Shown piece after piece: positions 3,425 through 32,000 of a stretch of DNA of 32,000 nucleotides. The first letter of the stretch is position 1. Each line of letters starts with the position of its first letter. Made by a program: the position numbers and the translations under genes. The notes beneath the pieces were generated by a model, which was given only the letters and a program-made list of their open reading frames with translations, had not been told where the DNA came from and made no database searches. The stretch comes from Xanthomonas campestris pv. campestris str. ATCC 33913 (GTDB lineage: Bacteria; Pseudomonadota; Gammaproteobacteria; Xanthomonadales; Xanthomonadaceae), in the NCBI RefSeq assembly GCF_000007145.1, contig NC_003902.1, forward strand, positions 1,837,436-1,869,435. Reading direction: 5' to 3'.

Positions 3425-5896
3425 ATGTCGACATTGCTTCGTCCCTCCCGTCGCGGCCATTGGGCCCTGGCGATTCTGGGAGGCGTGATTGTGCTGCTGG
3501 GGCTGGTGCTGCTGGCAGGTGGTGCGTGGCTCGCCACGCTGGGCGGATCCTGGTATTACGCACCGGCAGGCCTGGCGATGCTGATCGCTGGCGTGTTGCT
3601 GTTCCGCGGCCGCAATGCCGGCGCGTGGTGGTTTGCCGCCGTCGTGGCCGCCACGCTGCTGTGGACGTGGTGGGAATCGGGCAGTGATTACTGGCGCTGG
3701 GTGCCGCGGCTCGGGTTGATCGTGGGCCTGGCGTTTGTGCTGGCGCTGCTGTTGCCCAAGCTCGAGCGCCCGGTGTCGCGCGCCGTCTCGCGCAGCGTGG
3801 CTGGCGGACTGGCAGTGGTGTTTGTGGTGGCCTTTGCGTTGGCCTTCGTGCCGTTCGGAATCACCGAGGCCGAGGGTGCATTGACGCAGGTGGCAGGCAT
3901 CGCCGCAGGTGTGGTCAATCGCCCCGCCGATGGCGCACAGCCGGCACAGCCCGCCAATGCGCCGGTCGATGACGACTGGGCCGCATATGGACGCAGCCAG
4001 GCTGGGCAGCGCTATTCGCCACTCACCCAAATCAATCGCGACAATGTCAGCCAGCTGCAGCAGGCGTGGGTGTTCCATACCGGCGATGTGCCGACCAAGC
4101 GCTGGGGCGCCGAAACCACACCGTTGAAGGTCGGCGACAGCCTGTATCTGTGTAGCGCGCGCAATCAGGTGATCGCGCTGGACGCCTCCACCGGCAAGCA
4201 GCGCTGGCGCTACGACCCCAAGGTCAAGGACGAGGCCATTCCATACACCGCGGCCTGCCGCGGGGTGTCGTATTACGAAGTGCCGACGGCGGCGCCGGCC
4301 GCAAATGACGCAGCCGCTTCGCAGGCGGCGACGGCGCCTGCGCTGTGCCGTACGCGCGTGATCGAAGGCACGCTGGATGGGCGCCTGATTGCATTGGATG
4401 CGCGCACCGGGACACCATGCGCGGACTTCGGCACTCACGGTCAGGTCGACATCACCGTCGGCATGGGCGAGACGCCACCGGGCTACATCTCGATCAACTC
4501 GCCGCCGGCCATCGTGCGCGGCGTGGTGGTCATCGGGCATCAGGTCCTTGACGGGCAAAAGCGTTATGAGCCCTCGGGCGTGATCCAGGGCTTTGACGCG
4601 GTCACCGGCCAGTTGCGCTGGGCCTGGGACATGACCCATCCCGAATGGAATGGTGCACCGCCGCCTGGCCAGACCTGGACGCGCGGCACCCCCAACATGT
4701 GGACCACCGCAGCGGCCGACGAGCAGCTGGGTTACGTGTATCTGCCGATGGGCAATTCCACCGCGGACTACTGGAGCAGCTCGCGCACGCCGCCGGAAAA
4801 CCGCTATGCCACCTCGCTGGTGGCGTTGGATGTGACCACCGGCAAGCCGGTGTGGAATTTCCAGACCACGCATATCGACGCATGGGATTACGACCTCGGC
4901 TCGCAGCCCAGCCTGATCGATTTCCCCAAGGATGGCGTCAACGTGCCGGCCGTGTTGCTGCCGAGCAAGCAGGGCGAGTTGTACGTGCTGGACCGTCGCA
5001 CCGGCGAGCCGCTGGTTGGCGTGGAAGAGCGCGCCGTGCCCGGCGGTGGTGTGGAGCCGCAGATGCGCTCCAAGACCCAGCCGTTCTCGCTGTATCACAC
5101 GCTGCGCAAGCCGGATCTGACCGAGCGCGACATGTGGGGCATGACCCCGATCGATCAGCTGGTGTGCCGTATCCAGTTCCGCAAGGCGAGCTACAAGGGC
5201 ATCTACACGCCGCCCGAAGCCGACCGGCATTCCATCGAATACCCCGGCTATAACGGCGGCTCGGACTGGGGCAGCGTGGCGGTGGATCCGCACCGTGGCG
5301 TGATCGTGGCCAACTACAACGACATGCCCAACTACAACATCCTGGTGCCGCGCGCCAAGGCGGACAAACTGGGCTGGGCTCCGCGCGATCAGGTGCGTGG
5401 CGATGCCGGTGGTGCCGAAGGCGCCGGCGACCCGCAGGCCGGCACGCCCTACGCGGTAAACGTCAACGCCGGCTGGCGTTTGCCGTTCACCAAGCTGCTG
5501 TGCAAGCAGCCACCCTATGGCGGCATTCGCGCCATCGATCTGAAGAGCGGCAAGACCCTGTGGGACCGTCCCTTTGGCAGTGCGCGCGGCAACGGGCCGT
5601 TCGGGATTCGCTCCGGCCTGCCGATCGAAATCGGCACGCCGAACAACGGTGGCTCGGTGGTCACTGCGGGTGGTCTGATCTTCATTGCCGCCGCAACCGA
5701 TGACCTGATCCGTGCGATCGACCTGGCCACCGGCAAGGAGCTGTGGCACGCCAAGCTGCCGGCCGGTGGCCAGGCCAATCCGATGGTCTACGCGTACGGC
5801 GGCCGCGAGTATCTGGTGATCATGGCGGCCGGTCACCACTTCATGGAAACACCGGCAGGCGATGCCCTGGTGGCCTACGCGTTGCCGCAGCGGTAA
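3425..5896 (+). CDS. gcd: Membrane-bound PQQ-dependent (quinoprotein) glucose dehydrogenase
   Basis: N-terminal multi-TM segment (ALAILGGVIVLLGLVLLAGGAWL...), followed by the PQQ beta-propeller region (YGRSQAGQRYSPLTQINRDNVSQLQQAWVFHTGD..., WDYDLGSQPSL). I prefer the ATG at 3425 (MSTLLRPSRRGHW) over the ORF-track start at 3380. Confidence 0.9.
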   Translation: MSTLLRPSRRGHWALAILGGVIVLLGLVLLAGGAWLATLGGSWYYAPAGLAMLIAGVLLFRGRNAGAWWFAAVVAATLLWTWWESGSDYWRWVPRLGLIVGLAFVLALLLPKLERPVSRAVSRSVAGGLAVVFVVAFALAFVPFGITEAEGALTQVAGIAAGVVNRPADGAQPAQPANAPVDDDWAAYGRSQAGQRYSPLTQINRDNVSQLQQAWVFHTGDVPTKRWGAETTPLKVGDSLYLCSARNQVIALDASTGKQRWRYDPKVKDEAIPYTAACRGVSYYEVPTAAPAANDAAASQAATAPALCRTRVIEGTLDGRLIALDARTGTPCADFGTHGQVDITVGMGETPPGYISINSPPAIVRGVVVIGHQVLDGQKRYEPSGVIQGFDAVTGQLRWAWDMTHPEWNGAPPPGQTWTRGTPNMWTTAAADEQLGYVYLPMGNSTADYWSSSRTPPENRYATSLVALDVTTGKPVWNFQTTHIDAWDYDLGSQPSLIDFPKDGVNVPAVLLPSKQGELYVLDRRTGEPLVGVEERAVPGGGVEPQMRSKTQPFSLYHTLRKPDLTERDMWGMTPIDQLVCRIQFRKASYKGIYTPPEADRHSIEYPGYNGGSDWGSVAVDPHRGVIVANYNDMPNYNILVPRAKADKLGWAPRDQVRGDAGGAEGAGDPQAGTPYAVNVNAGWRLPFTKLLCKQPPYGGIRAIDLKSGKTLWDRPFGSARGNGPFGIRSGLPIEIGTPNNGGSVVTAGGLIFIAAATDDLIRAIDLATGKELWHAKLPAGGQANPMVYAYGGREYLVIMAAGHHFMETPAGDALVAYALPQR

Positions 5897-5927
5897 GCGG
5901 CAACGCGGTTCAATGGATCTGTGAATC

Positions 5928-5958
5928 AGAAACGCGCCGCTTGCGGCGCGTTTCTTTA
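5928..5958 (+). terminator. Probable intrinsic terminator of gcd
   Basis: AGAAACGCGCCGC (5928-5940) is complementary to GCGGCGCGTTTCT (5943-5955). The T-rich tail TTTCTTT follows. It starts 32 nt after the stop. Confidence 0.6.
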
Positions 5959-6116
5959 GCACGCATTCCTCGCAACCCGTCCAGACTCGCAGCTCGAATA
6001 GTCAGCCCGAGCGCTCAATTCAAGGCACGATACGAATGGCCGGCGCGACTGCTTTGTAAGAAAGCAAACGTCCCACATTCCGCGCCGCACGCGCCTCAGG
6101 CACTCAACCCAGGCAC

Positions 6117-6854
6117 TCAGTTCACAGCACTTGCAAGACTGTCTTGCTCTTCCTTCACGGCATCCTGCACGTCCTGCGCCAGCGTGGCCTTGACGATAAT
6201 CGAGCGAATGGCGTCGGTGGCCTCTGACAGCGGTATGTCGCTGCTCAGGCGCTGGAAGGTATCGCGGCTGTTATAGCCGGAACCATCCTTGAGGTAGTGC
6301 TCGTACATCGACAGCAGATCCTGGCACGCCGTGATCAGCGCAGCCACATTGCCACGCAGCAGCGCATGGCCGATCTGGTCGAAGCTGTGCAGACAATCGG
6401 CCAGCCAATGCAGGTCGTAGCGTGCAGTGCTGGGTTCGGGCGCGTTGTGGCCGCGGCTGTAAGCGCTGTAACGGCGCAGGCTGCGTGCCACGCGCGCGAC
6501 ATGCGCAAACAGCGTGCCGATTTCCGCAGCGATATCCAGGCGCTGCACCATCACCATCGGAATCACCTGGTCGGGCGTGTCTGAAGACTGCTGCGCCGAG
6601 GCATTCTGTTCCTGCTGATCGAGCGATTGCTTCAACACCGTGTAGCTGCGTTGCAGGGACTCCAGCTCCAGCGTGGTCGCCGCCGCACGTGCTTTCAGCT
6701 GCGACAGCGCCGCCTGATAGCGCGCAAGACTGTCCTGGGTGCTGGCGTGCTGCCCGTACTCGGCAGTGAGCTGGCGCCCACGCACGAACGCCAACCCCGT
6801 GGCGATGAGCGCCCAGAGTGCGAAGGCAGGCACCAGGTAGATCAGGATGCCCAT
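6117..6854 (-). CDS. Hypothetical membrane-anchored coiled-coil protein
   Basis: ORF with one N-terminal TM helix (MGILIYLVPAFALWALIATGLAF), a Gln/Leu-rich predicted coiled coil, and a helical C-terminal region. I prefer the ATG at 6854 because GAGGAGCC lies just upstream; the ORF-track start is 6965. I recognise no family. Confidence 0.55.
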   Translation of the reverse strand: MGILIYLVPAFALWALIATGLAFVRGRQLTAEYGQHASTQDSLARYQAALSQLKARAAATTLELESLQRSYTVLKQSLDQQEQNASAQQSSDTPDQVIPMVMVQRLDIAAEIGTLFAHVARVARSLRRYSAYSRGHNAPEPSTARYDLHWLADCLHSFDQIGHALLRGNVAALITACQDLLSMYEHYLKDGSGYNSRDTFQRLSSDIPLSEATDAIRSIIVKATLAQDVQDAVKEEQDSLASAVN

Positions 6855-6993
6855 GGAGGCTCCTCGGAACGATGCATATCTTGTCGGCCAGGAATCGGCA
6901 GACTTGAGCGCTTTCGCTTGAAGATGCTCGATGCGCGGTGCCGCGGCCTTTGCGGCAACCGCCAATTAGAGACTTACGTGTGGCTTCGGCCTA

Positions 6994-7016
6994 CTGACAG
7001 CGCGTGGCGCTGTCAG
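6994..7016 (-). terminator. Hairpin just downstream of hutU (terminator-like, no U tract)
   Basis: CTGACAGCGC (6994-7003), loop GTG, GCGCTGTCAG (7007-7016). It lies 12 nt beyond the hutU stop on the minus strand. Confidence 0.35.
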
Positions 7017-7028
7017 CGCGGCCAAGGC

Positions 7029-8696
7029 TCAGCTCAAGATGCCCGGCAAATCCAGGCCTTGGTCCTTCGCGCACTCCACGGCGATGGCGTATCCCGCATC
7101 GGCATGGCGCATCACGCCGGTGGCCGGGTCGTTCCAGAGCACGCGTTCGATCCGCTTGTCTGCTGCTTCGCTACCGTCGCAGACGATGACCATGCCGGCG
7201 TGCTGCGAAAAGCCCATGCCGACGCCGCCGCCGTGATGCAGCGAGACCCAGGTGGCGCCGCTGGCGGTGTTGAGCAGGGCGTTGAGCAGGGGCCAATCGG
7301 AGACGGCATCGGAGCCATCGGCCATCGCCTCGGTTTCGCGATTGGGCGAGGCCACGCTGCCGGAATCCAGATGATCGCGGCCGATCACCACCGGTGCCTT
7401 CAGCTCGCCGCTGCGCACCATCGCGTTGAAGGCCAGGCCGAGCCGATGGCGGTCGCCCAGACCAACCCAGCAAATCCGCGCGGGCAGGCCCTGGAAGGCA
7501 ATCTTTTCAGCGGCCATGTCCAGCCAGCGGTGCAGGTGCGCATCGTCGGGGATGAGTTCCTTGACCTTGGCATCGGTCTTGGCGATGTCTTCCGGGTCGC
7601 CGGACAACGCCACCCAGCGGAACGGGCCGATGCCGCGACAAAACAAGGGCCGGATATAGGCGGGCACGAAGCCGGGGAAGTCGAAGGCGTTGTCGATGCC
7701 TTCTTCCAGCGCCATCTGCCGCAGGTTGTTGCCGTAGTCCACGGTGGGCACGCCGAGTGCGTGGAAGGTGAGCATGGCGCGTATGTGGTTGGCCATCGCC
7801 TCGCGCGCGGCGGCTTCCACGTCCTTCGGCGCGCTCACGCGCTTTGCGTCCCATTCTTCGACGCTCCAGCCCTGCGGCAGGTAGCCGTTGACAGGGTCGT
7901 GCGCGGAGGTCTGGTCGGTCAGCAGGTCCGGCTTGATGCCGCGCAGCAGCAGTTCGTCCAGCACGTCGGCGACATTGCCGAGCAGGCCGACCGACAGTGG
8001 CCTCTTCGCGGTGCACGATTCCTCGATCAGCCGTAACGCCTCGTCCAGCGAGTCGGTCCAGGTGTCCAGGTAGCCGGTGCGCAGGCGCATGTCGATGCTA
8101 GAGCGGCGGCATTCCACCGCCAGGCAGGAGGCGCCGGCCATCACCGCGGCCAGCGGCTGCGCGCCACCCATGCCGCCGAGCCCGCCGGTAAACAGCCACT
8201 TGCCGGCCAGGCTGCCGCCGTAATGCTGGCGGCCCATCTCCACGAAGGTTTCGTAGGTGCCTTGCACGATGCCTTGCGCGCCGATGTAGATCCAACTGCC
8301 GGCGGTCATCTGGCCGTACATGGCCAGGCCCTTTTTATCCAGTTCGTTGAAGTGGTCCCAGGTGGCCCAGCGCGGCACCAGGTTGGAATTGGCGATCAAC
8401 ACGCGCGGCGCATCGGCATGCGTGCGGAACACACCGACCGGCTTGCCCGACTGCACCAACAGGGTCTGGTCATCGTCCAGGCGGGTCAGCGCGGCGACGA
8501 TTGCATCGAAGGATTCCCAGTCGCGCGCGGCACGGCCGATGCCGCCGTAGACCACCAGTTCCTGCGGACGCTCGGCCACGTCCGGGTCCAGATTGTTCAT
8601 CAGCATGCGCAGCGGCGCTTCGGTGAGCCAGCTCTTGGCGGTAAGCGTGGTGCCGGTGGCGGCGCGGATGACGCGGGTGGAGTCGTGACGGGTCAT
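7029..8696 (-). CDS. hutU: Urocanate hydratase (urocanase)
   Basis: Full-length urocanase-like sequence ([43 protein letters not shown]...). ATG at 8696 is preceded by AAGGA; the ORF-track start at 8711 is a TTG. Confidence 0.96.
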
Positions 8697-11142: not shown

Positions 11143-12348
11143 TCAGCAAGGATGCCCGCGCCAAACGCGGGTGTGGAGAGGGTTGAAGCCCATGCGGTAG
11201 ACCAGATCGGCCGGCGCGTCGATGTCCCAGATCGCCAGATCGCACTGCATGCCGGCGCGCAGCCGGCCCAGCCGGTTGCCCCGTCCGAGCGCACGTGCCG
11301 CTTCGCGGGTGAAGCCGGTGATGCATCCGTCTACCGTCATGCGGAACAAGGTGGCGGCCATGTTCATCGCCAGCAGCGGGCTGGTCAGCGGCGAGGTGCC
11401 GGGGTTGCAGTCAGTGGCCAGGGCCAGCGGTACACCGGCCGCGCGCAATGCGGGAATCGGTGGCAATTGGGTGTCGCGGGTGAAGTAGAACGCGCCCGGC
11501 AACAGCACTGCGACGGTGCCGGCATTGGCCATCGCATCAATGCCGGCCTGGTCCAGGTATTCGATGTGGTCCGCCGACAAGGCACCGTAGCGCGCGGCCA
11601 ACGCGGCGCCGTGTTGGTTGCTCAATTGCTCGGCGTGGATCTTGATCTGCAGCCCGTGCGCCCGCGCAGCAACGAACACCTGTTCGGCCTGCGCCGGCGA
11701 AAACGCCAGGTGCTCGCAAAACACATCCACCGCTTCGGCCAGGCCCTGCGCCGCCACCGCCGGGATCATCTCCTGGCACACTGCATCGATATAGGTCTGC
11801 CCCTGCGCGCCGGGCGGCACCGCATGCGCGCCCAGGAAGGTAGGCACCACCTCCACCTGTCGCAGCGTGGCGAGCTGGCGCGCGACGCGCAGCTGCTTGA
11901 TTTCGTCTTCCAGCGTGAGGCCGTAGCCGGATTTGATCTCCAGCGTGGTCACGCCTTCGGCAAGCAGCGCGTCCAGGCGCGGCAGGCTGGCGGCGAGCAA
12001 AGCGGCATCATCGGCGGCACGCGTCGCGCGCACGGTCGCCACAATGCCACCGCCGGCCGCGGCGATCTGCGCATAGCTGGCGCCGCGCAGGCGTTGTTCG
12101 AATTCATTGGCGCGGTTGCCCGCGTACACCAGGTGGGTGTGGCAATCGATCAGGCCGGGGCTGATCCAGCGCCGCTGGCAATCGTGGACGTGGCTGGCCT
12201 GCAGCGGCGGCGCATCGGCCGCCGGCCCGGCGTACACGATGGTGCCGTCCTGGCAGGCGACCACGCCATCGTCCACGCTGCCCAGGCCGCCGTCGCCAGC
12301 GTCCAGCGTCATCAACCGCGCGTTGTGCCAAAGGACGTCGCAATGCAT
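11143..12348 (-). CDS. hutI: Imidazolonepropionase
   Basis: Amidohydrolase-fold HutI sequence ([20 protein letters not shown]...). I prefer the ATG at 12348 ([16 protein letters not shown]) over the ORF-track start at 12429. Confidence 0.93.
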
Positions 12349-27739: not shown

Positions 27740-27829
27740 GGAGAGATGGCCGAGCGGTTTAAGGCACCGGTCTTGAAAACCGGCGAAGGGTCAAACCTTC
27801 CGTGGGTTCGAATCCCACTCTCTCCGCCA
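27740..27829 (+). tRNA. tRNA-Ser (anticodon UGA), CCA encoded
   Basis: Acceptor stem GGAGAGA pairs with TCTCTCC. D arm GCCGAGCGGTTTAAGGC. Anticodon stem-loop CCGGT-CTTGAAA-ACCGG. Long variable arm, T arm GTGGGTTCGAATCCCAC, discriminator G and CCA. Confidence 0.95.
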
Positions 27830-27912: not shown

Positions 27913-29379
27913 ATGCGCATCCCTCATCATTTGAGCCGTTCTCCGACCGGCCGCTGGTCGTTCGTCCAACGTGTGCCCGTCGATTTGCAAACCGTGATGG
28001 GCTGCCGGCTTATCAAACGCACCCTGCAAACGAAGGACTTGGCGCAGGCGCATGTGCGTGCAGTCGTGCTTGGGGCGGGCTATGCTCGGCTCTTCGCACA
28101 GTTGACGGATCAACGCGTGGACAAGCTGAGCAAGACGGACGCTGACCTCCTGATTGCGCGTCTGACGAGCGCAGAAAATCTTCAGGACCTGACGCTCAAC
28201 CGCACCCGCCAGCCGGATGGCACGGTGACGGAGCAGTGGCAGATCGACAGCCCGAAGGACTTGAAGCTGTATCGGCAGCTCATGGAGTTGGAAGCGATGG
28301 CCGGTGCGGCCTTGCAGGCTCGGGCCCACCCGGTTGCCGTGCCAACCATGTTTGGCTCAACGCACGCTGGCCCAAGTAGGCAGTCATCTGCGCCGGCCAT
28401 CGAGACGATGACGCTGGGCAAAGCCCGTGACGCCTTTCTGGCGACACTCAAGGGCTCGACGCTGCCCAAGACCTACACCATCAAGAAAACCGCCATTGAG
28501 GCGTTGGTGTCGTTTCTGGGACCGACAATGAAGGTCCATGCCATCACCCGGTCGGATTTGGCACGGTGGTATCAAGACATGCGCGAGAAGGGCGCTTCGA
28601 CCCCGACCCTCACGAACAAGCAGTCGTATATCGGTGGGCGGGGAGGCTTTTTCGAATGGGCCATGGCGTCGGGCCATTACCCGAAGGGCGATAACCCGGC
28701 GAGCGGCCACGTGAGCTACTCCCAGCGCGAGAAGCGGGCCCGGAAGAAGCTGGGATTTAAAGCGTATGACCGTGCCCAGATCCAGGCGCTGTTCGCGCCT
28801 GAGGCGCTGGCCAAGCTATCAGAGTCGGCTCGCTGGGCCTCGTTCCTTGGGCTCTACACAGGTGCCAGGGCATCCGAAGTGGGGCAGCTTCTGGTCAAGG
28901 ACGTGTTCGAAGAAGACGGCATCCCGTGCATTCGTATCTCTGACGAGGGCGAGCACCAGAAGGTCAAAACCGAGGTCAGCCTTCGGACGGTGCCGCTCCA
29001 CCCCGAGCTCCTCAAGATGGGCTTCCTTGAGTGGGTTGGTGGCAAGCGCAAGGTCGGTGAAACGAGGCTATTCCCGGCGGCTAAAGCAACGGCGGTAAAC
29101 GGGCAGGGCAACTGGATCACTAAGGCGTTTAGCAGGCACTTGGCCGAGGTTGGCAAAAACTGGGAGCCGGCAAAGCGTGGCTTCCACTCGCTCAGGAAGA
29201 CCTTAATCCAAGAGCTGCAGGGCGCTGGCGTGGTGTCAGAGCTAAGGGCTCAAATAGTCGGCCATGAGCTGGACGACGAGCATCACTCAACCTACGGCAG
29301 GGATTTTACAGTAGTTGAAAAGCTCAGAGGTCTCGGGCCGCACTCGCCTGGAATTTCTCGCTTGTCCTTCTTCCAATAA
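27913..29379 (+). CDS. Tyrosine-type site-specific integrase
   Basis: 488 aa. Catalytic-domain signatures: LYTGARASEVGQL (Arg I), HSLRKT (His-x-x-Arg) and VGHE...HSTYGRD (His/Tyr). The N-terminal RSPTGRWSFVQRVPVDL motif is typical of long island integrases. Confidence 0.9.
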   Translation: MRIPHHLSRSPTGRWSFVQRVPVDLQTVMGCRLIKRTLQTKDLAQAHVRAVVLGAGYARLFAQLTDQRVDKLSKTDADLLIARLTSAENLQDLTLNRTRQPDGTVTEQWQIDSPKDLKLYRQLMELEAMAGAALQARAHPVAVPTMFGSTHAGPSRQSSAPAIETMTLGKARDAFLATLKGSTLPKTYTIKKTAIEALVSFLGPTMKVHAITRSDLARWYQDMREKGASTPTLTNKQSYIGGRGGFFEWAMASGHYPKGDNPASGHVSYSQREKRARKKLGFKAYDRAQIQALFAPEALAKLSESARWASFLGLYTGARASEVGQLLVKDVFEEDGIPCIRISDEGEHQKVKTEVSLRTVPLHPELLKMGFLEWVGGKRKVGETRLFPAAKATAVNGQGNWITKAFSRHLAEVGKNWEPAKRGFHSLRKTLIQELQGAGVVSELRAQIVGHELDDEHHSTYGRDFTVVEKLRGLGPHSPGISRLSFFQ

Positions 29380-29432
29380 CTGGATTTTGCTAGTTGTTGG
29401 TGGAATAAATTTTTATTCTCAAATTCATTGAG

Positions 29433-30752
29433 ATGTTTGCCAATATCAAGAGAGGGGGGGTAATTTTGAGCGGGAAAAAGATCGCGATCATTGGGGCGGG
29501 CGCGAAAGCCGCCGCAATAGCTGTCAGAGCTACAGCGCTAAATGAATCAAAACAATTTCACGAGGTGAGTGTTGATATATATGAAAAATTTCAGGTGGGA
29601 TCAAGTTGGAATGGGCTCCATGGGTATACCGATGGGGAGCAGCCTCTGTGTACACCAATCGAACGAGATTTGGGCTACCCGTATACTCGGGCTCGCCAGA
29701 AGATTGGTGTATCCATTCATGAAAATTATTCCTGGTCGAGCTATCTGATTTCCAGAGCGGATAAAGCTTTTGTGGAGTGGGTAGATGGAGGTAGGCGGCC
29801 ACCATCTCACGCACTTTTTGCCGAATATCTAACCTGGGCGATAAACAAGTCGGACGCAAACCTTATCTTAAAGGAGGTTATTGGACTTCAGCCGGTAAAA
29901 GGAAGGTGGCGGGTGAGGTGCAGGGCAGGATCTACAAATCGCCTCAGTAAAAATAGTTACGATAGCATCGTTGTTACAGGTCCCGGTCCTGCTAACCGGG
30001 TGAAGGCGCCTGGCGGAGTGGCGCGTGTGTTTGATGGTGAGAAGATGTGGATGGCACTGGATGAAGTTAGGTCGGCGCTGGAGGAGACTCGGCCGGGTCA
30101 AGACATGGAAGGAAAGATCGCCATATTAGGAGCGGGTGGAACTGCGGCAGCTATTCTCGCTTGGCTTGTGCGTAATGGTTGTAAGGATCGAGAAATAATC
30201 ATAATTTCGCAGCAGCCTGCTTTCTACACAAGAGGTGATAGCGTATTCGAGAATAGGCTATTCAATGATGAGGACTCCTGGGCATCTCTGCCGCGTGAAT
30301 CGCAAATCGAATTTGCCGACCGACTTAATCGAGGAGTGGTTTGGTCAACAGTGATGGACCAGGTGTCTGTAGCGCGCGGGGTGAAATTTGTATTCGGCAA
30401 GGCTGAGGAGGTTCTTGAGCGAGATGGTTCTTTGTTCGTAAATGTCGCAAGGTCGGACGGCCCGCCCATTGATGTTCCAGCAAACATAGTATTTGATGCC
30501 GTCGGCTTCAATGGCGTTTGGTGGCTGGATTTAATAGAGGACGATGAGATTCGTGCCGCTAACGGTAATGAATTAAAAAAGCTCCTGCAGGCTTCAATAC
30601 TCCCTAGTCTTATGCTTGACGGTCCTGACTGGAAGTTGCCCCCTCTCTACGCTCCAATGCTTGCGAGCACTATCGGACCTGGATTTCAGAGCTTGATGTC
30701 ACTTGGAGGCCTAGCCCATAGGATCTTAGAGGGTCATTTGACAGAGCTGTAG
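29433..30752 (+). CDS. Two-Rossmann FAD/NAD(P)-binding oxidoreductase, resembling class B N-hydroxylating flavin monooxygenases (IucD/PvdA/SidA-like)
   Basis: 439-aa ORF in low-GC DNA. GAGAKA at aa 21-26, GAGGTA at aa 233-238, DAVGF at aa 355-359. SSWNGLHG...ERDLGYP...SYL, FAEYLTWA and the C-terminal GPGFQSLMSLGGLAHRI resemble the K_oxygenase layout, judged by recollection with no search run. Alternative start at TTG 29466, just after a strong AGAGGGGGGG Shine-Dalgarno, which would give MSGKKIAIIGAG. Confidence 0.55.
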   Translation: MFANIKRGGVILSGKKIAIIGAGAKAAAIAVRATALNESKQFHEVSVDIYEKFQVGSSWNGLHGYTDGEQPLCTPIERDLGYPYTRARQKIGVSIHENYSWSSYLISRADKAFVEWVDGGRRPPSHALFAEYLTWAINKSDANLILKEVIGLQPVKGRWRVRCRAGSTNRLSKNSYDSIVVTGPGPANRVKAPGGVARVFDGEKMWMALDEVRSALEETRPGQDMEGKIAILGAGGTAAAILAWLVRNGCKDREIIIISQQPAFYTRGDSVFENRLFNDEDSWASLPRESQIEFADRLNRGVVWSTVMDQVSVARGVKFVFGKAEEVLERDGSLFVNVARSDGPPIDVPANIVFDAVGFNGVWWLDLIEDDEIRAANGNELKKLLQASILPSLMLDGPDWKLPPLYAPMLASTIGPGFQSLMSLGGLAHRILEGHLTEL

Positions 30753-30795
30753 TTGAAGCGTATACATATGTATGGGTCTTTCAATGGGGTGGTAT

Positions 30796-31257
30796 ATGTC
30801 AAGTAGTGGATCAGTGGTAGATAAAAATATGGTGCTGCGTACGATATACATTAACCCTGCTTTGGATGATTGGCTTAAGCAGGAGGCATTCTCGTCTAGA
30901 ACAAGCAAGAACGATTTGCTGCGCCAGTATATTGAGATGGGAATACTGGCGGCAGCACAGACGGATGCTTCTAGCCCGAGGAAGTATGCTGAGGTATTGG
31001 ATATAGTTAAGGATTCTAACGCTGCTAAAGTGCTCGCAAAGCTAACTAAGCAAGTGGCTACTTCAAAGAAGTCTGGTCAGTCCGCGACTAAAATTTTACA
31101 TTATACCGGTGGCTATACGGCTTCCGTATTTGGCGGCGCAAAGAGGGCGGCGGTAAAAAAGGCAACGGCAAAAAAGGCTGTTAAAAGAGTTGCCAAGAAA
31201 GCTGTAAAGAAGGTTGCTGCAAAGAGGGCAGGCGCGCGCAGGGCTGCAACTGCTTAA
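30796..31257 (+). CDS. Ribbon-helix-helix (CopG/Arc-like) DNA-binding protein with histone-H1-like Lys/Ala-rich C-terminal tail
   Basis: VLRTIYINPALDDWLKQEAFSSRTSKNDLLRQYIEMGI fits a beta-alpha-alpha RHH pattern. The tail is [41 protein letters not shown]. In-frame ATGs are at 30772, 30784, 30796 and 30829. I chose 30796 because GGGGTGG lies upstream. Confidence 0.6.
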   Translation: MSSSGSVVDKNMVLRTIYINPALDDWLKQEAFSSRTSKNDLLRQYIEMGILAAAQTDASSPRKYAEVLDIVKDSNAAKVLAKLTKQVATSKKSGQSATKILHYTGGYTASVFGGAKRAAVKKATAKKAVKRVAKKAVKKVAAKRAGARRAATA

Positions 31258-31514
31258 TTAATTTAATACTGGGCGGCTCGTGGTGACACAGGTCTCTCGT
31301 GACATGCCCACGTCCGCGTCCAAAAATAATGTGAGAGAGCTCTCAAGCTGGCGCCGTCAGACTGGACCGGCCCGATGACAAATCCGAAACGTCCAAAAAA
31401 GAGCGGGGCGCCCGATGACCACCAGAAGAGCCGGTGCCGAGGCGTCACGGGCATGCGGACTAGCGGCAATGAGGGGGCTCCTTTTGCCGGACAGCTGGCC
31501 CAGGTGCCGCGCCG

Positions 31515-32000
31515 CTACACTTCGGACTCAGGCGGGGCGGTCACGGAATCATCAGCCCAGTCCATTGGCACTAGCGCCTTCCCGTTTCGCCAGCGCTCCA
31601 CGACTAGATCCTGATACCACGGCTCCTGAATGTCTGCGTGTTCCGTGATGATGACCTGCATGCGTGGAGACAGGTCCTGGACGACGTTAACAATCAGCCG
31701 GAAGATGCGAATCACGGCCAGGCGATCCTCATCCTCCTCGCCCACTTGGTTGACATCACGACCTTTTTCCGCCGGGAAGTAGACCTGTGACGGCTGGTCT
31801 AGGATCAGGAACCGCGGCACAGGACGTTCCCTGCGAACGAAAAATTCGTGTAAGGCAAGGAAGGCGATAAGATGGCAGCCGAGCCAAGTCTCACCGCTAC
31901 CCATTCGGCTCATGGGCACGGCACCGTCTTCCGTGTCGGCGACGACGATGAGCTTCTTCGGCTCAAGCCGGAAGGGGATTCCGGCGTGCTCCAGTTCTAA
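31515..32000 (-). CDS. C-terminal part of a DUF3732 / LmuB-like SMC-type ABC ATPase (Lamassu / ABC-3C family); N-terminus outside the window
   Basis: The reading frame stays open to position 32000 (LELEHAGIPFRLEPKKLIVVADTEDGAVPMSRM...). Signature-like GSGETWLGCHLIAFLALHEFF, Walker B-like PRFLILDQPSQVYFP, and H-loop-like QVIITEHAD. Family assignment is from memory of DUF3732 conservation. Confidence 0.65.
   Translation of the reverse strand, partial: LELEHAGIPFRLEPKKLIVVADTEDGAVPMSRMGSGETWLGCHLIAFLALHEFFVRRERPVPRFLILDQPSQVYFPAEKGRDVNQVGEEDEDRLAVIRIFRLIVNVVQDLSPRMQVIITEHADIQEPWYQDLVVERWRNGKALVPMDWADDSVTAPPESEV

Follow-up and report, generated by a model that had tools for sequence, protein, structure and literature searches.

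Gene layout and the two predicted proteins

We analyzed a stretch of 32,000 nucleotides (nt) from the genome of Xanthomonas campestris pv. campestris (Xcc) str. ATCC 33913 (NC_003902.1, positions 1,837,436–1,869,435; hereafter the window), in which two open reading frames, ORF A (29433–30752; 439 amino acids, aa) and ORF B (30772–31257; 161 aa), lie in the same direction on the + strand with 19 nt between them, or 43 nt if ORF B begins at ATG 30796. The original prediction, made by reading the DNA alone, had described two co-directional ORFs less than 80 nt apart in a block of foreign composition, and both points were confirmed: the GC content in 300-nt windows was 0.44–0.53 over about 29350–31300, compared with 0.57–0.63 in the integrase gene upstream and 0.62–0.75 in core genes. 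The products are a predicted N-hydroxylating monooxygenase (NMO) that uses flavin adenine dinucleotide (FAD) and reduced nicotinamide adenine dinucleotide phosphate (NADPH), and a predicted DNA-binding protein of the ribbon-helix-helix (RHH) type. The pair, hereafter the A–B cassette, has the following parts.

29433–30752, + strand: ORF A, predicted NbtG-like FAD/NADPH-dependent NMO; annotated start ATG 29433, more probable start TTG 29466 (428 aa)
29493–29510, + strand: FAD-binding dinucleotide motif GAGAKA, aa 21–26 of the 439-aa ORF A
30129–30146, + strand: NADPH-binding dinucleotide motif GAGGTA, aa 233–238 of the 439-aa ORF A
30738–30743, + strand: −35-like box TTGACA inside the last ORF A codons, read from the sequence and assigned to a putative ORF B promoter
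30760–30773, + strand: AT-rich palindrome GTATACATATGTAT, covering the candidate −10 hexamer TATACA (30761–30766); putative RHH operator
30772–31257, + strand: ORF B, predicted RHH protein with a disordered basic tail; long ORF from 30772, more probable start ATG 30796 (153 aa)
30829–30945, + strand: predicted RHH core of ORF B (MVLRTIYINPALDDWLKQEAFSSRTSKNDLLRQYIEMGI), its sole sequence-conserved part
31132–31254, + strand: Lys/Ala-rich basic tail of ORF B, 41 residues, read from the translation

Translation of ORF A more probably starts at TTG 29466, because a AGAGGGGGG Shine–Dalgarno sequence precedes this codon and the homologues begin there; the annotated ATG 29433 adds 11 residues that are missing from most homologues, and other gene callers use TTG 29466 (window 29433–29468). 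For ORF B, ATG 30796 is the more probable start, given that a promoter-like site falls on 30738–30773. The gene calls of other assemblies place its start at the equivalents of 30796 or 30814.

The original prediction had read the 439-aa protein as an N-hydroxylase of the IucD/PvdA/SidA type, and database comparison bore this out and narrowed it to the NbtG subtype (PF13434, PDB 4d7e and fold). ORF A matched Pfam PF13434 with 36.5 bits (gathering score 21.3), a family also present in the precomputed annotation of nearly all ORF A homologues, and scored slightly below the cut-off for PF13454 (19.9 bits; cut-off 21.8). A NCBIfam scan of ORF A and ORF B returned only spurious Rossmann matches (shikimate dehydrogenase) and a sub-threshold H1-like match. 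The best solved relative in a single-sequence phmmer search was the lysine N6-monooxygenase NbtG (PDB 4d7e; E 3e-43, residues 17–434). A profile of 63 homologues matched NbtG 4d7e in the PDB with an E-value of 1.6e-85, and MbtG (9nns), PvdA, SidA and KtzI with 1e-10 to 1e-6, MbtG 9nns reaching only 7e-10. The AlphaFold2 model of ORF A, built on an alignment of 63 sequences (pLDDT 91.2, pTM 0.92), had the three-domain NMO fold, and Foldseek ranked NbtG first (E 4.8e-31, TM 0.78/0.84), followed by SidA, KtzI, PvdA and DesB, all with probability 1.00; 4d7e was thus the top match by phmmer, profile and Foldseek.

The three motifs named in the original prediction, GAGAKA, GAGGTA and DAVGF (aa 355–359), were present at the positions given and conserved among the 63 homologues. 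In GAGAKA, residues G10, G12 and K14 (428-aa numbering) were conserved in at least 90% of them; in GAGGTA, which aligns to GGGETA of NbtG, G222, G224 and G225 (428-aa numbering) were invariant, as were G358 and F359 of DAVGF. ORF A and NbtG also had the family motifs GxTDG, DxGFPY, FSW, W(I/V)DRGR, TRG(D/E)SxFEN and GPGF in common. Because of the profile match, the PDB match, the structure model and the intact motifs, ORF A is predicted to be an NbtG-type class-B flavin N-hydroxylase with both cofactor motifs intact. The position aligned to NbtG Lys64 (PEKDIGFPY) is held by a near-invariant Arg in the ORF A family (IERDLGYPY), which keeps the charge and changes the residue. If NbtG Lys64 is the equivalent of SidA Lys107, as we take it to be from the motif, this Arg would favor an amino acid over a nucleobase as the likely substrate of ORF A. 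SidA Lys107 is the anchor of the substrate carboxylate (PMC8009421).

Whole-length ORF B gave no Pfam match. When only the cores of ORF B proteins were compared with Pfam, RHH_1 was found in 34/41 (best 1.2e-6) and Antitox_RHH in 15/41; the core from the window itself reached only E 0.061 for RHH_1 (13.7 bits; cut-off 20.5). A profile of the cores matched the RHH antitoxin VapB26 in the PDB (7.4e-5). The AlphaFold2 model of ORF B consisted of an extended segment and two helices (pLDDT 86–96), two weaker helices, a disordered stretch and the Lys/Ala-rich tail. Foldseek returned no significant match for ORF B, and the top ones were RHH proteins (TacA2, VapB, AtaR). These comparisons and the model point to an RHH protein, predicted to bind DNA, with a basic disordered tail. 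Of 38 homologues, 34 had tails with a pI above 9; the tails contained 13% K, 9% R and 20% A, and their sequence was not conserved. Their resemblance to histone H1, part of the original prediction, was one of composition only: the RHH core and the basic tail stood, but the NCBIfam H1-like model NF038053 scored 15.7 bits against a cut-off of 80. H1-like, Lys/Ala-rich nucleoid proteins (NF038053, AlgP-like tails) have AKKAVKK repeats like the ORF B tail; what ORF B conserves is instead its RHH core.

The composition of the tail bears on a further reading, in which the cassette modifies DNA or chromatin: ORF B, docked on DNA through its RHH core and H1-like tail, would recruit ORF A or serve as its substrate, and either the N-hydroxylated tail lysines would lose their charge and thereby switch DNA binding, or ORF A would hydroxylate exocyclic base amines, as the original prediction had suggested. 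The tails are enriched in lysine (K:R ratio 1.4, versus 0.5 in the ORF A proteins of the same genomes), a lysine hydroxylase has a Lys-rich DNA binder as partner in most loci, and tandem RHH cores in two loci (L018, L030) underline a role in DNA binding. However, the tails are non-basic or lysine-poor in three loci (L040, L046, L048), an insertion sequence (IS) removes about the last 14 tail codons in many Xcc strains, the conserved Arg at the carboxylate-binding position would favor a free amino acid, and we know of no NMO that acts on proteins or nucleobases. We therefore consider such a modifier quite improbable.

The two tandem cores lie in one ORF B polypeptide each, in Rugamonas rubra (L018, 11351–11797) and Massilia mucilaginosa (L030, 7549–8037), and constitute a covalent version of the RHH dimer. 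Searches of a 5.8-billion-protein set with ORF B found few relatives, 4 proteins with the single sequence and 16 with the profile. Two short, tail-less relatives (P0125 and P0135) do not adjoin an NMO gene, so the RHH core family is wider than the cassette.

Alignments of many Xcc assemblies to the window break off within the 3′ end of ORF B (window 31213–31257; L001 about 11781–11993; L004 about 4018–4042). From this point the sequence reads GTCGCCCCTGAAAAACCCCCAATCACC..., which resembles an IS end, and about 200 nt further on the contigs stop; the interrupted ORF B ends KKAVK-SRP (stop), with the loss of about 14 tail codons. The IS end probably explains why contigs that encode an identical ORF A protein all end just past ORF B.

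Pairing of the two genes and a putative promoter between them

A hidden Markov model (HMM) of ORF B was used to search every ORF in 90 loci. In 40/40 non-redundant proteobacterial loci it detected an ORF B homologue immediately 3′ of the NMO gene; the same search found none beside actinobacterial NbtG-type NMO genes (0 of about 40 loci). Further A–B loci were found in Stenotrophomonas maltophilia (L091, L092), Massilia varians (L093), a Rhizobium plasmid (L100), a Chloroflexota metagenome-assembled genome (L048) and Loktanella (L054). This brings the total to about 45 non-redundant A–B loci, mostly of alpha-, beta- and gammaproteobacteria, in which every NMO gene with a readable flank has an adjoining ORF B; no proteobacterial locus with a readable flank contained an intact ORF A without ORF B. 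The outcome named in the original prediction as a refutation, homologues almost always in siderophore clusters and no constant RHH neighbor, was thus not observed: in the proteobacterial loci the homologues were never in siderophore clusters, and the RHH gene was next to the NMO gene throughout. In the Loktanella locus, ORF B (7660–8301, minus strand) is convergent to ORF A and not co-directional.

Pairwise identities of ORF A and of the ORF B core co-varied over 703 locus pairs (Spearman 0.56). In a distance tree, B-linked enzymes were found on every proteobacterial branch, and the actinobacterial enzymes of the siderophore type formed a clade of their own. More than 120 ORF A homologues were found with 35–89% identity, in Xanthomonas, Stenotrophomonas, Pseudoxanthomonas, Paraburkholderia, Massilia, Duganella, Variovorax, sphingomonads, Methylobacterium, Brevundimonas, Acetobacteraceae and others. 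The family is small, with 293 representatives at E≤1e-30 among 1.84 billion proteins, and the architecture was stand-alone in all but one of the 150 relatives listed (251–539 aa). All-against-all clustering of the neighboring genes revealed that only A and B were kept; integrases came next, at about 6/40 loci. Thus the A–B cassette is a rare, horizontally mobile two-gene unit whose genes are adjacent throughout and diverge together.

A third conserved cassette gene was rejected, as none emerged from the clustering. The same applies to a helicase gene and the gene of a 304-aa protein, a pair considered as a cassette part: it was confined to one lineage (L037, L100) and looks like Hachiman. In the Chloroflexota locus, a B-like RHH gene (5379–5600; E 1e-10, acidic tail) lies directly 3′ of the NMO gene. 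On the tree, the NMO of this locus joins the actinobacterial siderophore clade at its base, so the pairing may predate the proteobacterial clade.

In one Xcc genome (CP066953.1; L098 7455–9591), ORF A is split by an IS3-family element, which leaves a 329-aa remnant, and ORF B has remained whole. IS copies have also inserted into the neighboring genes LmuB and MC3, and upstream there is a restriction-modification pair of the Eco57I/XhoI type.

From the last codons of ORF A into the region between the genes run TTGACA, a 17-nt spacer and TATACA, followed by the Shine–Dalgarno sequence and start codon of ORF B. The palindrome over TATACA is made of alternating purines and pyrimidines and reads GTATACATATGTAT in the window, where it occurs once in 32 kb, and TGTACATATGTACA, TTCATATGTACATATGAA and similar at other loci. 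In 32/40 loci, no similar 14-mer across the whole 6–32 kb locus surpassed the palindrome of the A–B spacer, and a CTTGA(C/A) box lay 23–32 nt 5′ of the palindrome center in 27 of 38 loci. No comparable palindrome was found within 260 nt upstream of ORF A in any locus. This arrangement suggests that the CTTGAC box and the palindrome form a sigma-70-type promoter of ORF B itself, with an RHH operator over the −10 hexamer. In the Loktanella locus, the palindrome lies 5′ of ORF B despite the inversion of this gene, which indicates that the element belongs to ORF B. In 13 of 39 loci the gene upstream of ORF A is encoded on the opposite strand, so ORF A should have its own, non-conserved promoter.

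The original prediction had offered the RHH protein as a repressor, and in the sense of a repressor of the whole cassette this needs revision: the only conserved operator-like palindrome is at the putative ORF B promoter. The simple form of the idea that ORF B represses the promoter of ORF A was rejected likewise, as no locus has an operator upstream of ORF A. An antisense promoter reading out of the palindrome was also rejected, for the right side of the palindrome has no conserved reverse −35 box.

Island habitat and neighboring genes

The genes flanking the cassette in the window are the following.

27740–27829, + strand: tRNA-Ser(TGA), island integration site (ARAGORN; Rfam tRNA 62.6 bits)
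27913–29379, + strand: tyrosine integrase (Pfam DUF6538 3.7e-14, Phage_integrase 2e-07)
31401–31413, − strand: terminator-like hairpin
31515–32000, − strand: 3′ end of the Lamassu gene LmuB, convergent with ORF B and running off the window (Pfam DUF3732 1.3e-46; PADLOC LmuB 2.9e-36)

The neighbors named in the original prediction, an integrase, the RHH gene and a Lamassu/ABC-3C-type ATPase gene, were thus found again with Pfam and PADLOC. The island of complete Xcc genomes runs from tRNA-Ser through the integrase, A and B to a convergent LmuB–MC3–LmuA(CTD7) Lamassu operon, which is followed by helix-turn-helix and CHAT genes; the complete LmuA(CTD7)–MC3–LmuB operon was seen in L096, L097 and L099. 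The order tRNA–integrase–A–B recurs in L006 and in L096–L099, and the integrase is island context and no conserved part of the cassette. No attR copy of the tRNA end was found within 10 kb downstream, and Rfam and repeat scans of the cassette found only the tRNA.

We scanned the 286 ORFs that lie no more than 4.5 kb from the cassette in 40 loci, with gene calls from a GC3-guided heuristic, Pfam families counted as the top 25 per batch pooled over loci, and PADLOC (PADLOC-DB v2.0.0) matches counted at E≤1e-10; 115 ORFs from 16 actinobacterial NbtG-type loci, passed through the same pipeline, served for comparison. The cassette had a lower GC content than its flanks in 36/40 loci, and frequent neighbor families were Phage_integrase, AAA_21, rve and conjugation genes. 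AMP-binding, Condensation, PP-binding or other siderophore domains were absent from the top families of the 286 ORFs, whereas the 115 actinobacterial ORFs contained 10 AMP-binding, 9 PP-binding and 8 Condensation domains. This agrees with the absence of siderophore partners that had been noticed in the window, and the ORF A clade has left the siderophore context.

These counts also bear on whether the cassette belongs to accessory metabolism, with ORF A making N6-hydroxylysine or another N-hydroxy amine for a siderophore pathway or an N–N/N–O pathway encoded elsewhere, and ORF B acting as a local regulator. All characterized relatives of ORF A serve such pathways, the closest matches being NbtG, MbsG, SidA, PvdA, KtzI and DesB (PMC7347517). 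The Arg at the Lys64 position suggests an amino-acid substrate, and many of the hosts are soil and plant bacteria with a rich secondary metabolism. However, nonribosomal peptide synthetase (NRPS) domains are missing from the top neighbor families and plentiful in the comparison set, the cassette is rare, of foreign composition and located at unrelated insertion sites across three proteobacterial classes, and the conserved putative operator lies at the promoter of ORF B, not of ORF A, which makes ORF B unlike a regulator of a pathway of ORF A. Taken together, a metabolic role of this kind appears unlikely.

PADLOC revealed defense genes near the cassette: Old (2e-230), IetS (8e-217), IetA, LmuB, LmuA, a CBASS cyclase, E1-E2, bSEFIR (9e-100), HamB (7e-75), AriA, PDC-S39 and AbiEi/AbiEii (one pair per batch, two loci). 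The actinobacterial comparison loci gave only generic kinase, SNF2 and mad matches. Thus the A–B cassette is cargo of genomic islands and integrative and conjugative elements (ICEs) rich in anti-phage systems, and the description of its setting as a defense or mobile island was borne out by Lamassu, CBASS and the other PADLOC neighbors. S. maltophilia L092 has CBASS type III and BrxR near the cassette, and in Sphingomonas formosensis L094 CBASS type II and Hen1/Pnkp come after an ICE; other settings are a Prim-Pol island, UvrD with integrases, and HNH with IS elements.

The cassette was absent from 50,697 INPHARED records and from IMG/VR, and a phage origin was rejected as neither collection gave a match. 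Among 72,556 plasmid records it was found on 2, both from Rhizobium. The absence from phage collections and near-absence from plasmids neither helps nor hurts the reading of the pair as a conflict module, which is set out below.

Lamassu adjoins the cassette in 3 of about 45 loci. The same subtype as in the window abuts ORF B in L037, in convergent orientation and about 20 nt past B, and in L033, a Novosphingobium plasmid, in co-directional orientation and 424 nt past B. This linkage suggested an accessory or regulatory module of the neighboring Lamassu system (LmuA-CTD7/MC3/LmuB), since the same subtype lies 21–424 nt from ORF B in the window, L037 and L033 although the ORF A proteins of L033 and L037 are only about 36–40% identical to that of the window. 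The other 40 or so loci, however, have no Lamassu within 4.5 kb, nor has L100, a close relative of L037; the orientation varies between loci; and L006, an 89%-identical locus, keeps integrase, A and B with only about the last 60 LmuB codons (6968–7336 versus window 31407–31595), its Lamassu operon having been deleted or replaced. With linkage in so few loci, we rejected the idea, which has hardly any likelihood left.

Two loci, L037 (5451–9997) and L100 (2346–6895), have a HamA-like 304-aa protein and a 1211-aa DEAD/DEAH helicase abutting ORF A on its upstream side; the two loci are 84–88% identical. The L037 cassette is thus apparently sandwiched between a Hachiman-like pair, so called because of the HamB match in that batch, and the Lamassu operon.

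At L095 the cassette adjoins metal-resistance genes, a setting that would suit detoxification or resistance cargo, in which ORF A N-hydroxylates and so inactivates an exogenous amine (a toxin, an antibiotic or a plant metabolite) and ORF B is an unrelated regulator. Antibiotic-inactivating flavin monooxygenases do exist in other classes, as is generally known, rifampicin monooxygenase among them. The cassette has no transporter or sensor partner, however, its active-site motifs are of the NbtG lysine hydroxylase type, and the constant retention of an RHH protein with a putative operator for itself only would be left unexplained. This function seems very unlikely to us.

A 557-aa protein with no Pfam match is encoded in L094 (6326–7999) and ends one base before ORF A, with which it may be co-transcribed; no homologue of it was found beside the cassette in other species. 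The S. maltophilia loci L091 and L092 both have four unannotated genes (250, 106, 153 and 243 aa; 5487–7904) directly upstream of the cassette. The rest of the two islands differs, one containing CBASS III and BrxR, the other an H-NS gene and an ImmA/IrrE pair.

Proposed function and comparison with known systems

We tentatively propose, as the best explanation of these data, that A–B is a conflict module in which ORF A is the effector and ORF B its obligate partner. ORF B would be transcribed from its own promoter, formed by the CTTGAC box and the palindrome over the −10 hexamer, and its product would bind the palindrome and repress this promoter; the level of ORF B would then be held fixed whatever the transcription of ORF A, being buffered independently of ORF A by autorepression. 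ORF A would be transcribed from its own, non-conserved promoter and would act as the effector of a module of the toxin–antitoxin, abortive-infection or element-stabilizing type. It would consume NADPH and O2 and turn lysine or a similar amino acid into an N-hydroxy antimetabolite, and peroxide would be set free when the reaction is uncoupled. ORF B would restrain or direct ORF A, at the level of protein or of DNA. The two chemistries offered in the original prediction, the burning of NADPH and the N-hydroxylation of a nucleobase or polyamine, are both conjectural. The mechanism, with ORF A as effector and ORF B as partner, is the part of the proposal we are least sure of.

Three observations suggest a conflict module: the defense-island habitat, the lack of any ORF A without ORF B, and the genome (CP066953) in which ORF A is split by an IS and ORF B is intact. 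Wasteful use of NADPH and O2 by ORF A would have precedent in related enzymes, since NbtG and MbsG are listed among the N-hydroxylases with uncoupled reactions, and peroxide was detected in assays of DesB, a related N-hydroxylase (PMC8009421; PMC7347517).

Several points weigh against this proposal. Association with islands is weak evidence, because islands also carry non-defense cargo. The tail of ORF B has a basic composition but no conserved sequence, and the ORF A proteins are not acidic (median pI 8.1), so a classical toxin-wrapping antitoxin is not indicated; the original prediction had also named the RHH protein as an antitoxin-like partner, and these properties are more in keeping with DNA binding than with the tail of a classical antitoxin. 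Unlike in the standard type II operon, the enzyme gene precedes the RHH gene, the putative promoters are separate and one case (L054) is convergent. The ORF B promoter is only inferred, because the −10 hexamers end in A and consensus scanning made no call; in the window, the standard sigma-70 scan passed over the site because the candidate TATACA ends in A, not T. Finally, we know of no toxicity of N-hydroxylysine formation.

A more specific version, that the NMO–RHH pair represents a new anti-phage or anti-mobile-element class with a flavin N-hydroxylase as effector, is more doubtful. On infection or upon loss of RHH control, the enzyme would use up NADPH and O2, generate peroxide or form an N-hydroxy antimetabolite, with N6-hydroxylysine as a candidate and, less likely, an N-hydroxylated base. 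If so, the pair would parallel NAD+-depletion immunity by way of redox chemistry or an antimetabolite. In textbooks, flavin N-hydroxylases catalyze the first step toward hydroxamate siderophores and N–N natural products; a conflict module built on one would add a new effector chemistry, NADPH/O2-driven N-hydroxylation, to bacterial immunity and provide a small, easily cloned system for testing. Even if the pair is not a conflict module, its strict pairing and conserved putative operator make it a clean unit with no assigned function, and a sister clade of the lysine hydroxylases from mycobacteria and nocardiae is now found paired with an RHH protein in the defense islands of three proteobacterial classes.

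The closest known enzymes are NbtG and MbsG, the lysine N6-hydroxylases of nocobactin and mycobactin (PDB 4d7e for the best sequence and fold match). ORF A has the same two dinucleotide motifs, but only about 27–32% identity, Arg in place of NbtG Lys64, and a separate branch on the tree. The actinobacterial genes of this type sit among NRPS genes without ORF B, whereas ORF A has an RHH partner and sits on mobile islands. ORF A is thus a member of the NMO superfamily nearest to NbtG that lacks the siderophore context.

Type II toxin–antitoxin systems with RHH antitoxins (VapB, TacA/AtaR, ParD and CcdA types) resemble A–B in being two-gene mobile units on islands next to integrases. Their antitoxins, like ORF B, combine an N-terminal RHH with a disordered C-terminal region, and ORF B has a putative self-operator palindrome. 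On the other hand, the enzyme gene of A–B comes first, the putative promoters are separate (the genes being convergent in L054) and the putative operator serves the RHH gene alone; the tail of ORF B is basic and unconserved, and ORF A is a 430-aa flavoenzyme, of a family that to our knowledge has never been reported as a toxin. The defining type II arrangement is a bicistronic operon autoregulated at the operon promoter, and in A–B the putative operator lies between A and B. A–B is therefore a two-gene island module with an RHH partner that resembles type II systems and does not have their operon structure.

PutA, in which an RHH is fused to a flavin proline dehydrogenase, likewise couples an RHH module to a FAD enzyme and is a precedent for the redox state of a flavin feeding into DNA binding. 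It is one polypeptide, however, with an unrelated flavoenzyme fold, and regulates the put operon, whereas ORF A and ORF B are separate and have no operator upstream of A.

No PADLOC-DB v2.0.0 model matched ORF A or ORF B at E up to 1, and a full-text literature search found no paper linking such enzymes to phage defense or to an RHH partner. This agrees with the original prediction, whose author knew of no described defense system with this architecture; its interpretation as a whole was partly supported. The A–B cassette is an undescribed island-borne two-gene module with an unprecedented enzyme. Unlike the known systems of defense islands (Lamassu, CBASS, Hachiman, AbiE), A–B has no nuclease, NADase, pore or protease effector, and no conserved sensor ATPase or helicase accompanies it; what it has in common with them is the habitat, the low GC content and the patchy, rare distribution.

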